In this document: positions 3,624-9,289 of the stretch, one piece after another
Position numbering within the stretch: position 1 is the stretch's first letter
Layout: every line of letters begins with the position of its first letter
From: a virus
Lineage: Duplodnaviria > Heunggongvirae > Uroviricota > Caudoviricetes
DNA length: 9,289 nucleotides
Virus record (IMG/VR): IMGVR_UViG_2537561823_000013
Strand: one strand, 5' to 3'
The notes under the pieces: model-generated
Told to the model about the DNA's origin: nothing
What the model saw: only the letters and a program-made list of their open reading frames with translations
The model's database searches: none
Position numbers and translations under genes: made by a program

Positions 3624-3911
3624 ATGAAACAGAAAATTTCTGGCTTTACTGCCAGCGGCCCCGCTCGGCCTGAAATCCGCCCCGGCGATATTTTCCGGGA
3701 TAACTATGGCGGCACGGTAACGATAAAAGGCGTGGCAGAACGGCGCATCACTTACCGCCGTGATGGCTACGAATATGACTGCGTGATGCCTGTTTATCAG
3801 TTCCGGCGTGATTTCACGCTGGTGGGCCATCGTAAAGCCGTAAATCAGAAACGTGCAGCAAGTCATATCCGCAAAATTCGTGAAATGCTGGTCGCAGGGG
3901 GTAAAAAATGA
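3624..3911 (+). CDS. hypothetical protein (95 aa)
   Basis: Open frame in operon context. Its stop overlaps the helicase start (ATGA at 3908-3911). Confidence 0.6.
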   Translation: MKQKISGFTASGPARPEIRPGDIFRDNYGGTVTIKGVAERRITYRRDGYEYDCVMPVYQFRRDFTLVGHRKAVNQKRAASHIRKIREMLVAGGKK

Positions 3912-5314
3912 AACTGGCACCGAACGTAAAACTGTTACCGAAAGATAAACACACTGAGGCGGTTATTTTTGCGGGTGATAATGCTCACTCCTTTGCAGAA
4001 CATTACATGATTGCACAGGCCAAAAAAGCAGGCGATCCCATCCCTCCGGTTTACCTGGGCCGTTATCAGTTAAGCGAACTGGACAACCTGCAGATTGTTG
4101 ATGAGGGGCGATACAGGGTAACGGTGATACGCGCCGGAAATATTGACGAAGCGCAGCTGTTAACCATAGCGACAAAACTGGCGATCGCCGGAGTCCAGGA
4201 AGCGCGGCTGCTTTCTGAAAACTTCGAATTACTGGAGAAATGGACCGACCAGCTTCCACGGCTACGGGAGACATGGGAGAGAGGGGAAAGCCTGATCATG
4301 AATGGAGGAAAACAAAAAATCACGCTACCGATTTCATGGGGTTCTGAGGGATTCGACGCGCAGCAAAGCTACGTAATTAAGGGGCTTATTCCGGCTGAAT
4401 CATTATGCAGCACCTACGGGGCCAGCGGTTCTTATAAATCGTTCCTGGCTATTTCCTGGTCGTGCCATGTTGCCACAGGTATGGCATGGGGAGGCCGCAG
4501 GGTAAGTAAGGGCGCGGTTATCTATATCGCTGGCGAAGGCAGTATGGGCGTAAAACGCCGCGTTAAGGCGTGGGAGATAACCCACGACAAGGTGGTTACG
4601 GATTTGTGCATCGTTAACGCGCCTGTCTTCCCTGCATCGCCTGACTATGTGGAGCAGGTTATCAGGACCGCCGGATTAGTGCAGGACAGAACGGGCGAAA
4701 GGGTGCGGATGATTGTCATTGACACGCTGGCCCGTTGCTTTGGTGGTCATGATGAAAATGACTCCCGCGACATGGGGGCGTTTATCCAGGGGTGTGACGC
4801 GATAAAGCAGGCCACGGGGGCCACGGTTCTGGTTGTGCATCATTCCGGCAAGGATGAGACGAAAGGGGCGCGGGGTTCCAGTGCATTCCGTGCGGCGCTT
4901 GATGCTGAGTTCCGAATCAGTCGGGAACATTCAGAGGCTACGGCGCTGGTTGCAGCATGTACGAAGATGAAGGACGCGGAGGAGCCAAAAGAAAGCGCCT
5001 ACGACCTTAAGAGCGTGGAGGTATTTACGGATCCTGAGGGTGAAGAAATCGTGTCCATGGTGGTGATTGACGTTCCCCGCGCCCCTGCTGAACTGGAGCG
5101 CATAGAGGAGGCCGGGAACAAGACGGAAAATCACACGGCTTTATGGGGTTGTATCCGGTCACGTATACAGCATGGTGATAAATGCACGATCCCGCTGCTA
5201 CGTGATGACATGAAAAAGCTGGGATATGACACAAAACACCTTAAACGATGGTTAGCCAAACTGGAAAAAGACGGCGTGATTTGCGTCGATGGGGATGATG
5301 TTCACCCACTGTAA
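3908..5314 (+). CDS. RepA-type (RecA-fold, AAA_25-like) replicative helicase / replication initiator with C-terminal putative DNA-binding domain
   Basis: 468 aa. P-loop-like TYGASGSYKSF, Walker B RMIVIDTLARCF, and VLVVHHSGKDETKGARGSSAF typical of the RepA/DnaB-like plasmid and satellite helicase family. SD aggggg sits about 9 nt upstream. No zinc-finger or Toprim primase signature was seen in the N-terminal 150 aa. Confidence 0.85.
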   Translation: MKLAPNVKLLPKDKHTEAVIFAGDNAHSFAEHYMIAQAKKAGDPIPPVYLGRYQLSELDNLQIVDEGRYRVTVIRAGNIDEAQLLTIATKLAIAGVQEARLLSENFELLEKWTDQLPRLRETWERGESLIMNGGKQKITLPISWGSEGFDAQQSYVIKGLIPAESLCSTYGASGSYKSFLAISWSCHVATGMAWGGRRVSKGAVIYIAGEGSMGVKRRVKAWEITHDKVVTDLCIVNAPVFPASPDYVEQVIRTAGLVQDRTGERVRMIVIDTLARCFGGHDENDSRDMGAFIQGCDAIKQATGATVLVVHHSGKDETKGARGSSAFRAALDAEFRISREHSEATALVAACTKMKDAEEPKESAYDLKSVEVFTDPEGEEIVSMVVIDVPRAPAELERIEEAGNKTENHTALWGCIRSRIQHGDKCTIPLLRDDMKKLGYDTKHLKRWLAKLEKDGVICVDGDDVHPL

Positions 5315-5514
5315 AAAGTGGGCGTTAAAAGTGGGAATAGTGGGTAATTTAACTGGAATTTAACAAAATCGCCCACTTTCCCACGTGTATACATCCCAAA
5401 AAGTGGGCACTAAAAAAATTCTTATGAAACAGTACGATATAAAACCACAAAATCCCAGGTGGGACGAAGTGGGAAACCATGAAAAGTGGGTAGAAAAAGT
5501 GGGCACAGGTGGGC
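5303..5514. repeat. iteron array with AT-rich spacer; candidate replication origin
   Basis: Core (A)AGTGGG(N) occurs as direct copies starting at 5316, 5329, 5338, 5401, 5457, 5467, 5484, 5497 and 5507. Inverted copies (CCCAC) are at 5303-5310, 5371-5378 and 5379-5384. An AT-rich stretch at 5409-5456 separates the two clusters. The array begins inside the last codons of the helicase gene. Confidence 0.65.
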
Positions 5515-5516
5515 GC

Positions 5517-5768
5517 ATGACCAGAAAAACCAGAGATAAGACAGCACCAAAATATCGCGCATTAGACATGACAGAGCACGCCTTAAAGGTGGCAATCAGA
5601 ACGATAGACCGCCACGCGGGGGAAGGATACGCGAAAGCACATCCCGAACTGATAAGCGCATTCATGACCACGACGGCGGCAAATTTTGCCACGCTGACAG
5701 AGCGGGAGATTGCGGAAGCTGAACAGGTGACAACCATCAACGTTAAAACCGGAGAGCAGACAGCATGA
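5517..5768 (+). CDS. hypothetical protein (83 aa), start trimmed to exclude the iteron-encoded N-terminus
   Basis: The ORF track starts at 5385, but codons 5385-5516 are the iterons themselves (repeated KVG/EVG/KWV). ATG 5517 follows aggtgg. The stop overlaps the ssb start (ATGA at 5765-5768). Coding status is uncertain. Confidence 0.4.
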   Translation: MTRKTRDKTAPKYRALDMTEHALKVAIRTIDRHAGEGYAKAHPELISAFMTTTAANFATLTEREIAEAEQVTTINVKTGEQTA

Positions 5769-6187
5769 CAGCACAGATAGCAGCTTACGGTCGGCTGGTG
5801 GCTGACCCGCAGTTAAAGACCACCAGCAAAGGGACACAAATGGCGATGGCGGGTATGGCGGTTCCCCTGCCGTGCAGCCAGGCAGATGACGGAACGGCGA
5901 CGATGTGGTTATCTGTCCTGGCGTTTGGCAGACAGGCCGACGCACTGGCAAAACACCACAAAGGCGAACTCCTGAGCGTGGCGGGTAACATGCAGGTGAG
6001 CCAGTGGACAGGCCAGAACGGCAAAACGCGGCAGGGCTGGCAGGTTATCGCAGATAGTGTAATCAGTGCCAGAACGGCGCGACCGGGCGGCAAAAAAGGT
6101 CAACAGGGCCAGGCCACTGACGCATTGAACAGGGCAAAACAACAGTCAGGGAATGATGAACCGTACGGCGATAATATACCGTTTTAA
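5765..6187 (+). CDS. ssb: single-stranded DNA-binding protein (SSB family, OB fold) with C-terminal ...DNIPF tip
   Basis: 140 aa. WLSVLAFGRQADALAKHHKGELLSVAGNMQVSQWTGQNGKTRQGWQVIADSV aligns by eye with E. coli SSB [52 protein letters not shown]. The C-terminus DEPYGDNIPF resembles the canonical DDDIPF tip. SD ggagag lies 9 nt upstream. Confidence 0.8.
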   Translation: MTAQIAAYGRLVADPQLKTTSKGTQMAMAGMAVPLPCSQADDGTATMWLSVLAFGRQADALAKHHKGELLSVAGNMQVSQWTGQNGKTRQGWQVIADSVISARTARPGGKKGQQGQATDALNRAKQQSGNDEPYGDNIPF

Positions 6188-6232: not shown

Positions 6233-6397
6233 GCTACATAAATCCCGACCAAAGGAAGTAAATACATTAACACGAATTATCAGCACTGAAGTTGTCACGG
6301 CAGATTTTATACAACATTGCACTTGGTTGCATGTATTCGCATAGCAGACATCGGTAATAGAATATATTCACAATTATTTGTAATGAATGTAAAGAGG

Positions 6398-7444
6398 ATG
6401 AGTATGGTTGATTTATATTCGCCTACACAGCTTGTGCAGGTGGCTAATGCTGAAGATGTGCAAAAAAAACTAAATGCGTTGTTTACCAGTTTGTTTTTCA
6501 CTCGCTCGGTAATGTTTGAATCGAGAGACATTATTCTTGATACGATCGACGATCCAAATATCCCGATCGCGGCGTTTTGCTCTCCTATGGTGGGCAGTAA
6601 AGTTTCACGAGATGAGGGATACGAATCAAAAACAATTCGCCCAGGCTATATGAAACCGAAAAGCAGTATTGATCCAAATAAGTTAGCTGTGCGCCCTGCT
6701 GGTGTATCACCTGAACAATACAATGCTTTTGGAGCGCGTAATATTAAAGTTAAACAGGCGATTGTAAATCAGGCTAAAGCTATACGTGCACGTATTGAAT
6801 GGATTGCTGTTCAGGCAATCACAACGGGGAAAAATATCATTGAGGGCGATGGGATTGAACGTTATGAACTGGACTGGAATATAAAACCACAAAATATTAT
6901 CACGCAGTCTGGCGGTGCTGAGTGGTCAGGTAAGGATAAAGAAACTTTTGATCCAAATGATGATATTGAGAGCTACGCAGAATTTAGTGAGGGCGTCACT
7001 AATATCATCATTATGGGCGGTAATGTATGGAAGAAATACCGTTCATTCAGAGCGATAAAAGAGGCTCTGGATACCCGTCGTGGTTCTAATTCCGAACTGG
7101 AAACGGCCCTTAAAGACCTTGGTGATTCGGTGAGTTTTAAAGGGTATATGGGCGATGTTGCGATTGTTGTTTACAGCGGACGTTATACCGACGAGGACGG
7201 AACTGAAAAACATTTCCTTGATCCTGATTTGATGGTGCTTGGCAATACGGCTCTTCAGGGGATTGTCGCCTATGGCGGTATTCAGGATCCGGAGCTAATC
7301 CGAATGGGGCTGACTAAAGCCGAACTTGCACCGAAAAACTATATTGTGCCTGGTGATCCGGCTATTGAGTACGTACAAACGCACTCTGCACCACAGCCAA
7401 TACCGGCCCGCATCAATCGTTTTGTTACCGTTCGCATTGGCTAA
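6398..7444 (+). CDS. major capsid protein, phage lambda gpE family (HK97 fold)
   Basis: Long collinear similarity to lambda gpE as recalled, for example NIITQSGGAEWSGKDKETFDPNDDIESYA...FRAIKEALDTRRGSNSELETALKDLG...GYMGDVAIVVYSG...MVLGNTALQGIVAYGGIQD versus lambda NITQSGGTEWSKRDKSTYDPTDDIEAYA...FKAVKEKLDTRRGSNSELETAVKDLG...GMYGDVAIVVYSG...MVLGNTQARGLRTYGCIQD. Start is MSMVD (6398), mirroring the lambda E MSM N-terminus; the SD aagagg (6392-6397) would favour ATG 6404. The ORF-track start 6317 was rejected. Confidence 0.9.
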   Translation: MSMVDLYSPTQLVQVANAEDVQKKLNALFTSLFFTRSVMFESRDIILDTIDDPNIPIAAFCSPMVGSKVSRDEGYESKTIRPGYMKPKSSIDPNKLAVRPAGVSPEQYNAFGARNIKVKQAIVNQAKAIRARIEWIAVQAITTGKNIIEGDGIERYELDWNIKPQNIITQSGGAEWSGKDKETFDPNDDIESYAEFSEGVTNIIIMGGNVWKKYRSFRAIKEALDTRRGSNSELETALKDLGDSVSFKGYMGDVAIVVYSGRYTDEDGTEKHFLDPDLMVLGNTALQGIVAYGGIQDPELIRMGLTKAELAPKNYIVPGDPAIEYVQTHSAPQPIPARINRFVTVRIG

Positions 7445-7453
7445 GGGGGAGCA

Positions 7454-7795
7454 ATGGCTACTCATTACACTGAACTCATGTCTGGTACTGAAGCACTGGT
7501 TACTACGCTGGGGATATTTTCAGCCAATAAAGGGGTAATACCTGCGTTTACGCCACTGATGCAGGAAGATGCAACTGGTGCGCTAGTGGTATGGGATGGA
7601 ACGAGCGCAGGCAAAGCGGTTTATGTTTCCGCTGTACAAATCGACACAGCGAAAAAAACACAGGCACAGGTTTATAAGACAGGTGTTTTAAATGTTGATG
7701 CTCTGAACTGGCCTGAGTCTGTAAGAGAACTGTCGGCAAAGGTTGCCGCGTTTGTTGGCTCAGGTATTTCTGTTCAGCCGCTGGCTCGTGTGTAA
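7454..7795 (+). CDS. head decoration protein, phage lambda gpD family
   Basis: 113 aa. TPLMQEDATGALVVWDGTSAGKAVYVSAV...YKTGVLNVDALNWPES...AAFVGSGISV matches recalled lambda gpD [29 protein letters not shown]...YKSGTFRYEDVLWPEA...TAFAGTAISIV. SD aaggggga lies 5 nt upstream. Confidence 0.85.
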   Translation: MATHYTELMSGTEALVTTLGIFSANKGVIPAFTPLMQEDATGALVVWDGTSAGKAVYVSAVQIDTAKKTQAQVYKTGVLNVDALNWPESVRELSAKVAAFVGSGISVQPLARV

Positions 7796-7806
7796 AGGGG
7801 GATACA

Positions 7807-8190
7807 ATGCAGAATCATTACAATGACCTTAAGCCAATTGCCGAAATGATGTATCCGGATCCAGCAGTAGAGGAATTAAAGGCTATTGCTGACAAAATGC
7901 GTTTAAGTGAACGCCTTGTTGATATGAATCAGGTGATGGAACTTACTACCCTTAGCCGTCGCACATTGCTAAACCTTGAGGCTCGTGGAGAGTTCCCCGA
8001 ACGCGTACAGGTTACGGAAGGGCGTAAGGCCTGGTATTTAAGTGAAGTGATCGACTGGATAAACAATATTCCTCGAGCTTCTGAATATTGCCGCGTACCT
8101 GTCCCCAAAAAGCCAGATGCGGCGCTATGCCTCAAGATTGAGCGTGTACGTCGCAATGCACGGGATGGTCGCTATAAGTTGATTGGTTGA
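7807..8190 (+). CDS. AlpA/Xis-like HTH domain protein with N-terminal extension (second AlpA-like gene in the element)
   Basis: 127 aa. MELTTLSRRTLLNLEARGEFPERVQVTEGRKAWYLSEVIDWI fits the AlpA-family HTH pattern, preceded by about 40 aa of unrelated sequence. SD agggggat lies 5 nt upstream. It sits between the decoration gene and cos. Confidence 0.7.
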   Translation: MQNHYNDLKPIAEMMYPDPAVEELKAIADKMRLSERLVDMNQVMELTTLSRRTLLNLEARGEFPERVQVTEGRKAWYLSEVIDWINNIPRASEYCRVPVPKKPDAALCLKIERVRRNARDGRYKLIG

Positions 8191-8218
8191 TGAAATTAGG
8201 GCCCGTTCTGGCTGGCGG

Positions 8219-8280
8219 GGCCTTTCCGGCGATCCGGCAGGCTACGGGGCGGCGACCTTGCGGTTTTTCGCTATTTATGA
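8219..8280 (+). other. lambda-type cos site: cosQ-like flank, cosN with 12-nt cohesive-end sequence, and conserved first 22 nt of the lambda left end
   Basis: 8247-8258 GGGCGGCGACCT is the lambda cohesive-end sequence. 8247-8280 GGGCGGCGACCTTGCGGTTTTTCGCTATTTATGA differs at 2 of 34 positions from the lambda left end as I recall it (GGGCGGCGACCTCGCGGGTTTTCGCTATTTATGA). 8219-8246 GGCCTTTCCGGCGATCCGGCAGGCTACG differs at 4 of 28 positions from the recalled lambda right end (GTCCTTTCCGGTGATCCGACAGGTTACG). Confidence 0.8.
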
Positions 8281-8391
8281 GCTTTTTCAGGGTGGTGGTG
8301 GTGGTTTTGTTGTTTGTTCTATCTCCATGAATGAAAAGGGAAAGATAACACCAACACACCAACCTGAAACCTTAACTAAGTGGGGATATTG
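8281..8391 (+). repeat. divergent cosB-like region with short repeats between cosN and terS; candidate TerS binding sites
   Basis: (GGT)5 at 8291-8305 followed by GTT/TTG-rich tttgttgtttgtt. Tandem CACCAACA / CACCAACC at 8349-8364 is roughly the inverted counterpart. The sequence no longer matches the recalled lambda cosB (AAATTTTCCGGTTTAAGGCGTTTCCGTTCTTCTTCG...). Confidence 0.4.
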
Positions 8392-8934
8392 ATGAAATCG
8401 CACCTGATGAACAAAAAAACTATGGCGCAAAGCTGCCGCGTAAGTGCGACAGCGTTCGACAAGTGGGGAGTGACTCCCGTTGAGCGTAAAGGCCGTGAGG
8501 CGTTTTATGATGTTGCTAGCGTGATAGACAATAGGGTTAACAATGCAATTAACCAACTTACAAACGACAAAGGCGAGATTGATGATGATGAACTTTTACG
8601 CGTAAGAATCAGATTAATGACGGCCCAGGCGGAAGCGCAGGAACTTAAAAACGAGCGCGAACGCGGCGAGGTGATTGATACAAAGTTTTGCATCTACGCG
8701 ATTTCAAAGCTGGCACAACAAATTTCTTCAATCATGGACAGCCTCCCGCTCACAATGCAAAGGCGCTTTCCCGATATAAGGCCGTATATGCTGGATGAAC
8801 TAAAAAGGGAAATAGTCAAAGCATGTAACGCATGTGCAAGACTTGACGAAAACCTGCCACAGATACTGGCTGATTACCTGATGGAAACTACCGGAAACGT
8901 GCCTGAGAAGTTGCTACAGAACAAAGGCGAGTAA
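8392..8934 (+). CDS. terminase small subunit, phage lambda Nu1 family
   Basis: RLMTAQAEAQELKNERERGEVIDTKFCIYAISKLAQQISSIMDSLPLTMQRRFPDI...LKREIVKACNACARLDENLPQILADYL matches recalled lambda Nu1 RLTRAQADAQELKNARDSAEVVETAFCTFVLSRIAGEIASILDGLPLSVQRRFPEL...LKRDIIKAMNKAAALDELIPGLLSEYI. The N-terminus aligns with the Nu1 winged-HTH. The ORF-track start is a GTG at 8380; ATG 8392 has a GGGGA SD 5 nt upstream; ATG 8407 is an alternative. Confidence 0.85.
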   Translation: MKSHLMNKKTMAQSCRVSATAFDKWGVTPVERKGREAFYDVASVIDNRVNNAINQLTNDKGEIDDDELLRVRIRLMTAQAEAQELKNERERGEVIDTKFCIYAISKLAQQISSIMDSLPLTMQRRFPDIRPYMLDELKREIVKACNACARLDENLPQILADYLMETTGNVPEKLLQNKGE

Positions 8935-9007
8935 CCGCCGCCCCGTAACGGGCCATAATTCCAGGAAGGACCCGACGACACCAGGCTATCAGAACGATGA
9001 GGGCACA

Positions 9008-9289
9008 ATGACTGAAGCCGAACTACTGGGATTAATCCGCCGCGTCGTCGGAATCAGCCAGCAGCATGACGAACAGGCCACACAGCCGGACAGCGTGACC
9101 GCTGAAAATTATGTGCGTGTTGTTGCTGAGGTGATGCGCCGTGATGGTATTGAGCTTAACGGCGTGGATATGCGCAACATACGAACAAGAGTCCTTGAGT
9201 TGCTGGCATACCGTCGCCGTTCTCAACAACGGAGGGAGAGCGCGAAAAATACTTACCAGTGGAAGAAGCCGGAACGGTTGCGGCGGTAG
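9008..9289 (+). CDS. hypothetical protein, 3' end runs off the window; not recognisably a lambda gpA-type large terminase N-terminus
   Basis: 93+ aa open frame with SD gaggg 4 nt upstream. MTEAELLGLIRRVVGISQQHDEQ... shows no resemblance by eye to the lambda gpA N-terminus. It is separated from terS by a 73-nt gap rather than overlapping it. Confidence 0.5.
   Translation: MTEAELLGLIRRVVGISQQHDEQATQPDSVTAENYVRVVAEVMRRDGIELNGVDMRNIRTRVLELLAYRRRSQQRRESAKNTYQWKKPERLRR

Follow-up and report, generated by a model that had tools for sequence, protein, structure and literature searches.

A helper-type cos cleavage site joined to a distinct cosB and a full-length small terminase gene in an Escherichia coli phage-inducible chromosomal island

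Phage-inducible chromosomal islands (PICIs) spread virulence and defence genes, and, to our knowledge, Rpp represents the only characterised packaging strategy for the cos-type PICIs of Escherichia coli. Here, we describe the packaging region of a 9,289-bp stretch of DNA, IMG/VR virus record IMGVR_UViG_2537561823_000013 (hereafter the window, meaning the whole stretch that was analysed), which is an E. coli PICI encoding its own small terminase subunit (TerS). On the basis of sequence comparisons, we consider it likely that positions 8216–8391 form a packaging site composed of two modules, namely a cosQ, cosN, and spacer of the helper phage type, followed by a private cosB that is read by the island TerS. 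When terS is included, the segment 8216–8934 can be interpreted as a self-contained module of packaging specificity that would unite a helper-type site for nicking and termination, a private docking site, and the cognate TerS. The features of this segment and of its right flank are listed below, with positions in bp within cosB counted from the cohesive end.

8217–8223 (−30 to −24 from the cohesive end), plus strand: cosQ-like heptamer GGGGCCT, agreeing with the lambda heptamer GGGTCCT at 6/7 positions and located by alignment to lambda and phage 21
8245–8260, plus strand: cosN, comprising the 12-nt cohesive end GGGCGGCGACCT (8247–8258) and 2 bp on each side, with T rather than C at +13
8259–8290, plus strand: conserved spacer from cosN to cosB, TGCGGTTTTTCGCTATTTATGAGCTTTTTCAG, corresponding to I2 in both lambda and phage 21 and kept throughout the satellite and phage cos sites that were compared
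8289–8317, plus strand: predicted R3-like box, AGG (GGT)5 TTT GTTGTT TGT, with the left arm of a 13-nt inverted repeat (8285–8297)
8318–8351, no strand assigned: A/T-rich interval between R3 and R2, where lambda and phage 21 have the integration host factor (IHF) site I1; TCTATCT..ATGAATGAAAAGGGAAAGAT is kept among the E. coli relatives
8352–8365, minus strand: predicted R2-like inverted box AGGTTGGTGTGTTG at bp 106–119 (phage 21 R2, bp 108–123), agreeing with the family consensus at 13/14 positions and forming the right arm of the inverted repeat
8378–8391, plus strand: predicted R1-like box AAGTGGGGATATTG at bp 132–145, agreeing with the consensus at 10/14 positions and overlapping the ribosome-binding site of terS (GGGGA, located 5 nt ahead of the ATG)
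8392–8934, plus strand: terS, encoding a full-length small terminase of the Nu1 family (180 aa), in which a winged-helix DNA-binding domain of the N15 type is combined with a C-terminal region that has been retained
8936–8973, minus strand: cos2 remnant, a second and inverted cos that retains cosQ (GGGTCCT) with its left flank and the first 8 nt of the cohesive end, and abuts the terS stop codon

The first module closely resembles the termini of lambda-like phages. Local alignment of 8216–8292 to positions −31 to +45 of the lambda termini (NC_001416) revealed 66/76 identical positions (87%) and a z-score of 13.8 against shuffled sequences, and alignment to the phage 21 termini resulted in an identity of 0.86 with a z-score that was likewise 13.8. 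The cohesive end is identical to that of both phages at 12/12 positions. An earlier note on this DNA had placed a lambda cohesive end at 8247–8258 and had proposed a comparison with the true lambda sequence, and both the placement and the match were borne out by these alignments. Its wording that the cleavage region is almost identical to lambda was slightly too strong, given the altered cosQ heptamer and the T at +13. The extent of cosN follows its published definition (PMC9026076), and the label I2 for the spacer was taken from the annotation of the phage 21 record. In terms of function, this module (8216–8290) would be a copy of that part of cos which the large terminase subunit (TerL) of a lambda-like helper nicks and uses to end packaging.

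From +46 to the terS start codon, no similarity was detected to the cosB of lambda (z = −0.2) or of phage 21 (z = 0.7), and none of the INPHARED phage records matches past 8292. This region is built from (GGT)5 at 8291–8305, a GTT-rich run that follows it (GTTGTT at 8309), and CACCAAC-type repeats at 8350–8365, all of which had been named in the earlier note, and the two arms of its inverted repeat (8285–8297 and 8357–8369) are 92% complementary. Triplets of the form G(G/T)T fill bp 45–68 and thereby coincide in phase and position with the mapped R3 site of phage N15 (bp 48–59, GAGGTTGTTGTT), which is the single critical site of that phage and in which GTTGTT at bp 54–59 is most important (PMC4669245). 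Compared by eye, bp 48–59 of the window (GGTGGTGGTGGT) are identical to N15 R3 at 7/12 positions in the same triplet phase, and GTTGTT is found at bp 63–68. The inverted R2 is kept as ATACACC(A/C)AC(C/T)TG in relatives from E. coli, Enterobacter, Kosakonia, and Citrobacter. At least two box hits at 10/14 or better occurred in 1% of shuffled sequences, and the family box consensus is matched at 10/14 positions by the mapped N15 R3, with no match in lambda, phage 21, or Rpp-type cos1. Taken together, the predicted boxes follow the canonical lambda/21 layout, with R3, an inverted R2 approximately 60 bp downstream, and R1 beside the gene. Thus, the view that this cosB is completely different from that of lambda holds for its sequence but not for its kind, as R3 and the inverted R2 stand at canonical distances.

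The motif AAGTGGGG, which had been described as a lone copy of the origin iteron core just before terS, requires another explanation. A second exact copy at 8461 corresponds to the codons for DKWG, and the copy at 8378 aligns with the R1-like box and the ribosome-binding site in the relatives. In one of these (L009), AAGTTGGTGTATTA stands at the R1 position and pairs with R2 as a perfect inverted repeat of 11 nt; therefore, AAGTGGGG is best read as an R1 box combined with a ribosome-binding site. The connection to the iterons was rejected, as the origin repeats consist of AAGTGGG followed by C, A, or T. Two further candidates in this region were discarded. A hypothetical 69-aa open reading frame (ORF) in RefSeq (8183–8392) that runs through cosQ, cosN, and cosB, and that is annotated under 1/12 among the matches listed, was rejected as a gene, with same-frame stops, read by eye, in the relatives L012 and L016. 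The possibility that (GGT)n represents glycine codons was rejected as well, the reading frame being stopped in the same two relatives.

The gene directly after cos starts at 8392 and encodes a diverged Nu1 homologue, in agreement with the earlier note. Its product scores 86.1 bits against Pfam Phage_Nu1 (gathering cutoff, 30), and its alignment with lambda Nu1 runs the full length to residue 180, with 37% identity across 179 columns (E = 8e-36). The closest phage relative is gp1 of N15 (48%), and the DNA-binding domain shares 60% identity with N15 gp1 versus 35%–42% with lambda, phage 21, and a lambda-type helper; the match to the gp1 N-terminus in a sequence search had 57.7% identity (E = 3e-14). 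The recognition helix reads TAFDKWGV in the window, QAFDKWGV in N15 (7/8 identical), and RTIQNWQE in lambda, and little or no variation from TAFDKWGV is seen across 22 family members. A profile built from PICI sequences alone matches residues 1–98 of lambda TerS (6HN7_B; E = 0.004). The AlphaFold2 model displays the expected beta-helix-helix-beta-beta-helix order at a mean predicted local distance difference test score of only 57, and the top Foldseek matches of this low-confidence model were winged helix-turn-helix proteins of the MerR type with non-significant E-values of 0.2–0.35. A single-protein phmmer search of the PDB returned nothing relevant and no Rpp chain. The ratio of nonsynonymous to synonymous substitution rates (dN/dS) relative to the relatives is 0.15–0.20, and terS is under purifying selection.

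The recognition helix and the repeats of cosB point the same way: the cosB of the window appears to belong to the N15/Monarch recognition class, which is matched by the N15-type helix of TerS. The Monarch group combines such a helix with a tripartite cosB (PMC4669245), a likeness to the layout of the window that is known from this published description rather than from sequence comparison. With N15, the window shares seven of the eight helix residues, a DNA-binding domain of approximately 60% identity, and boxes of G-N-T triplets at the position and in the phase of R3. However, the boxes of the window are rich in GGT or GTTGG rather than (GTT)3, and Thr replaces Gln in the helix. These departures from the phage versions, G for T in the boxes and Thr for Gln in the helix, are consistent and may reflect a shifted specificity. 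Phages with the Gln helix (N15, the Trabulsiella prophages L040 and L041, and IMG/VR locus L104) carry boxes of the GTTGTTG type, whereas GGTGGTG or GTTGGTG boxes are found in satellites whose helix has Thr; the pairing of Gln or Thr in the helix with T or G in the box is a candidate residue-base covariation that is represented by few independent lineages. The window further differs from N15 in its lambda-type cosN (GGGCGGCGACCT versus GGGCGGCGTCCG) and in being a 10-kb satellite that lacks a TerL gene.

Across islands of E. coli, Enterobacter, Kosakonia, and Citrobacter, the TerS DNA-binding domain (72%–96% identity) and the cosB motifs (GGT)n(GTT)n and inverted R2 are kept together. The cosN varies across these same islands and occurs as GGGCGGCGACCT, GGGCGTCGACCT, GGGCGGCAGACT, or AGGCGGCAGCGT. 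The Enterobacter-group relatives are PICIs embedded in a helper, with gene E of a lambda-like prophage as the site of insertion, a location that lends comparative support to dependence on a helper for induction, packaging, and transfer. With the helper gpC as a query, two loci holding both cos sites were obtained (L043, from Kosakonia sp. S29, and L193, from IMG/VR). In both, the helper Nu1 is 86%–87% identical to lambda Nu1, the helper cosB is lambda-like, and the satellite shares the cohesive end of its helper, which in L043 is the rare variant GGGCGGCAGACT. The satellite and helper cos of L043 are 86% identical over −31 to +45. Nevertheless, the satellite cosB is unrelated to the helper cosB in both loci (z = −0.2 for the L043 pair), and the DNA-binding domains of the satellite and helper TerS are only 33%–37% identical. 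We regard these linked pairs, which provide the helper contrast through relatives rather than through the window's own island, as the strongest computational support for a specificity swap. As such, the swap proposed in the earlier note, in which the helper TerL can cut but only the island TerS can dock, is retained as a modular reading, with cosQ and cosN of the TerL type kept and cosB replaced together with the island TerS, and its support is comparative. At another locus (L245:5300–5510), a prophage with a lambda-type Nu1 (87%) has the N15-type cohesive end GGGCGGCGTCCG, and the embedded Rpp-type satellite has GGGCGTCGACCT. The cosN of satellite and helper thus differ at this locus, and therefore cosN identity between partners is not a rule.

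Our inferences from this anatomy concern the binding of DNA, the recruitment of TerL, the cutting of cosN, and whatever interference the island may exert on its helper, and the course of events may be as follows. Induction of the helper and replication of the island would come first, after which the island TerS would bind the R boxes on island concatemers, the G(G/T)T-triplet boxes of the second module (8289–8391) being its predicted partner. The helper TerL would then be brought to cosN by the island TerS, which could recruit it directly, via the C-terminal domain that it has kept, or together with the helper TerS in mixed oligomers; the island DNA would be cut at 8247–8258 and packaged into particles built by the helper. 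A helper TerS of lambda or phage 21 specificity would presumably be unable to read the island cosB. As to the mode of recruitment, a C-terminus that is retained and that has diverged by clade towards phage-like sequence speaks for direct recruitment of TerL, and mixed oligomers are compatible with the strong conservation of the central region.

Several observations weigh against this interpretation. Two E. coli islands that encode TerS, IHE3034 and 18098, were not transferred after induction of their resident prophages (PMC6092414). The C-terminal 41 residues of the island TerS, which putatively bind TerL, are only 37%–41% identical to any phage TerS compared (lambda, 41%), and direct binding of TerL is therefore not assured. 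No site with one or fewer mismatches to the IHF consensus WATCARNNNNTTR was found in 8186–8602, including the interval between R3 and R2. The box consensus was derived from the satellite family itself, and R3 reaches only approximately 8/14 against it by eye and R1 10/14. The (GGT)n repeat numbers 2, 3, or 5 in the relatives (L008–L026), which shifts the distance between cosN and cosB in steps of 3 bp and moves the GTTGTT core, R2, and R1 relative to cosN, although the triplet phase is always kept; changes in this spacing are deleterious in lambda (PMC9026076). In addition, the window has G for T at the fourth cosQ position and T for C at +13, and neither position varies among the other cos sites examined. 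Exclusion of helper DNA, which the earlier note had considered possible, is a separate matter. The N15-specific terminase is reported to package lambda DNA (PMC4669245), and therefore helper exclusion does not follow automatically.

The strongest rival explanation is derived from the Rpp system, which also defines how much of the present arrangement is new. EcCICFT073-type islands combine a cosQ and cosN similar to those of their lambda-like helpers with a different cosB. Their Rpp protein (139–154 aa) contains a winged helix-turn-helix but lacks the C-terminal TerL-binding segment, and by dimerising with the TerS of the helper it directs this subunit to the cosB of the island (PMC6092414; PMC6739421; PMC9026076). 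The principle of a helper-like cosQ and cosN with a different cosB is thus already published for Gram-negative PICIs with Rpp. Islands IHE3034 and 18098 are mentioned as encoding TerS without further analysis (PMC6092414), and no description of a version with full-length TerS was found in the literature searched. The window resembles EcCICFT073 in the order of its 3′ part (capsid gene, decoration protein gene, a small ORF that is AlpA in the window, cos, specificity gene, inverted cos2, and a 93-aa ORF), in a cosQ and cosN of the lambda-like helper type, and in a cosB unrelated to that of the helper. It differs in that a 180-aa Nu1 homologue with a C-terminal region takes the place of the 144-aa RppA, with no shared similarity, and in that its cosB has three boxes and an inverted repeat, whereas the Rpp type has one proposed R3. 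The Rpp-type box of EcCICFT073, ACACCACCACCACTTG, is the reverse complement of a (GGT)3-containing box resembling the R boxes of the TerS type and lies at the same distance from cosN, and the TerS-type and Rpp-type cosB may share ancestry, or the repeat may have a common physical role. Either ACACCACCACCACTTG or CCCACCACCACT is present at approximately bp 53–68 in Rpp-type cosB, as observed in EcCICFT073 cos1 (L005:2611–2626) and in the Rpp-type cos of L245.

By analogy with Rpp, the island TerS could form mixed oligomers in which the helper TerS gives TerL binding and the island TerS gives DNA specificity; helper packaging would be poisoned and the helper terS would be essential. We consider this possible, but on balance doubtful. 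The syntenic rpp gene has a published mechanism of this kind (PMC6739421; PMC9026076), the motif R.RL..A.A.AQELKN, common to all family members and phage TerS compared, lies within the coiled-coil and oligomerisation region, and the C-terminus is the least conserved part of the satellite TerS, at 24%–29% identity between the E. coli and the Enterobacter/Citrobacter clades. However, the island TerS aligns with Nu1 through residue 180, whereas Rpp is a shorter protein without the C-terminal segment (PMC9026076), and a direct comparison of TerS with RppA revealed no similarity (BLASTP E = 7). Moreover, in most comparisons the C-terminus of a satellite TerS is nearer to phage TerS than to the other satellite clade (E. 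coli, 37%–41%; P0100 and P0107, 37%–44%, and P0114, 29%–32%, to the lambda type), which is the pattern expected if it were adapted to TerL.

A more far-reaching version of the two-module interpretation can be offered tentatively, as it is, in our estimate, rather less probable than not. The satellite TerS and cosB may constitute a third, satellite-specific specificity of the lambda family, defined by GGT boxes and the Thr helix, orthogonal to both lambda/21 and N15/Monarch, capturing TerL directly without the helper TerS, and tolerating or even exploiting changes in repeat length between cosN and cosB. If so, it would be the dominant strategy of packaging hijack among E. coli PICIs, and one that is experimentally unstudied.

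It is improbable, by comparison, that the island simply mimics its helper. Here, the helper itself would possess a TerS and cosB of the N15/Monarch type, the island would have copied the whole cos-terS module, and the helper TerS would read the island cosB, leaving no private specificity. Lambda-like prophages of Enterobacteriaceae with N15-type TerS and very similar cosB do exist, as in Trabulsiella L040 and L041 with CAGGAGGTTGGTTGTTGTTTTGTTG (L041 having the lambda cohesive end); L104 has the R3 GGTGGTTGTTGTTTAA, an inverted R2, and a TerL gene, and the cos2 of L103, an RppA-type island, contains an R3 identical to that of N15. However, the helper is of the lambda type and not the N15 type in both linked pairs, and, within Enterobacteriaceae, the phage records contain this TerS DNA-binding domain only in N15 and in one N15-like phage of Enterobacter. 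Satellites and phages also differ consistently (G versus T in the triplets, Thr versus Gln in the helix), and mimicry would make a terS of the island's own unnecessary, yet this gene is under purifying selection.

That the island is a decaying relic with a non-functional cos, no longer capable of being mobilised, is similarly unlikely: the variant cosQ and the T at +13, the truncated cos2, and the presence of an identical island in only 6 complete genomes are in its favour, but the island genes are all intact, as are the cohesive end, spacer, R2, and R1, the dN/dS of terS is low, variation in cosN is tolerated by terminases of the lambda family (PMC4669245), and cos2 is not required for transfer in EcCICFT073 (PMC6739421). 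Given the cosQ and +13 changes together with the truncated cos2, there is nonetheless a modest chance that the window's copy is impaired. A complete cos2 occurs at the matching position in EcCICFT073 and in the relatives L008–L011, and the cosB of this complete cos2 has a helper-type appearance, being either lambda-like or furnished with 21-like ATGTCCGG boxes. In a scan of 7700–9289, the only terminator-like hits overlapping cos sites were located at cosN (8245–8260) and the cos2 remnant (8924–8944), and these are probably incidental; no promoter-like sites were found in the same scan.

The two-module site can also be compared with more distant systems. Staphylococcus aureus pathogenicity islands likewise encode a TerS that reads a satellite-specific packaging site and uses the helper TerL (PMC6092414; 10.1101/2022.09.08.507074). 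However, they are Gram-positive elements with headful packaging from pac, an unrelated TerS family, and a separate protein, Ppi, that blocks the helper TerS, whereas the site in the window is a cos that has its nicking and termination parts in common with the helper. With lambda and phage 21, the window shares the order, orientation, and spacing of its elements (R3 at bp 45–68 and R2 at bp 106–119, versus bp 51–66 and 108–123 in phage 21) and 86%–87% identity over −31 to +45. It differs in that the R-box sequences are unrelated, no IHF consensus is present at I1, R1 abuts the start codon, and cosB is approximately 45 bp shorter.

The TerS family is abundant in E. coli. At megablast sensitivity, the cosB-terS module was detected in 729/5426 complete E. 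coli genomes and the RppA/B-like module in 97, making the former approximately 7 times more frequent, and strains with the TerS-type module include members of O157:H7, O55:H7, and O26:H11. In one E. coli island (L015:2521–3543), the cos-terS module directly follows a PerC-like gene in the absence of capsid and decoration genes, and therefore the module moves independently of the capsid genes. An exact-pattern scan of IMG/VR for GGTGGTGGTGTTGTTGTT returned 76 loci, most of them unrelated, among which 9 were genuine satellite cos sites. The module predicts a helper dependence different from that of Rpp, as the helper terS may be dispensable. It also provides a natural experiment for the lambda-family terminase, in which the same cosN and TerL occur with a different TerS and cosB, and in which the distance between cosN and cosB varies naturally where spacing is thought to be critical. 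The covariation of one residue with one base constitutes a candidate specificity determinant, and, if orthogonal, the cos/TerS pair could be useful for the delivery of engineered PICIs or cosmids.

With regard to the island as a whole, the window is identical to a chromosomal island in 6 complete E. coli genomes, including the enterotoxigenic E. coli (ETEC) strains TW11681 and WS1933D. In TW11681, this island adjoins tRNA-Pro between yejM and yejO and is flanked by 26-nt direct repeats that are 10,381 bp apart. The window shows an integrase at an att site, a size of approximately 10 kb, AlpA, and a replication module of its own, and it lacks lysis, tail, and TerL genes, all of which are characteristic of PICIs. 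It is thus a PICI of the EcCICFT073 family located at tRNA-Pro in ETEC strains. The remaining genes identified are as follows.

1–1242: tyrosine integrase (Pfam)
3908–5314: RepA-type helicase, AAA_25 (Pfam)
5765–6187: single-stranded DNA-binding protein, SSB (Pfam)
6317–7444: ORF for a gpE-like major capsid protein (Pfam)
7454–7795: gpD-like decoration protein (Pfam)
7807–8190, plus strand: helix-turn-helix gene of the AlpA family, directly 5′ of cos (Pfam Phage_AlpA, E = 1.4e-8; relatives have the same gene order)

Seven copies of the iteron AAGTGGG(C/A/T) were found on both strands at 5316–5504, just 3′ of the RepA helicase gene, and this cluster is probably the replication origin of the island. 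An exact 17-nt direct repeat, ATATAAAACCACAAAAT, is present both in the origin region (5437–5453) and inside the capsid gene (6879–6895). Like EcCICFT073, the island carries capsid and decoration genes of its own (6317–7795), and approximately four copies of 10.4 kb would fill a head of lambda size. Helper-embedded relatives contain variable cargo, including a CAP12-PCTIR TIR-domain protein (L020:3379–4254), an FRG-domain protein (L023:4559–5584), and a CoiA-like nuclease (L021:7036–7758), and these genes possibly serve in anti-phage defence.

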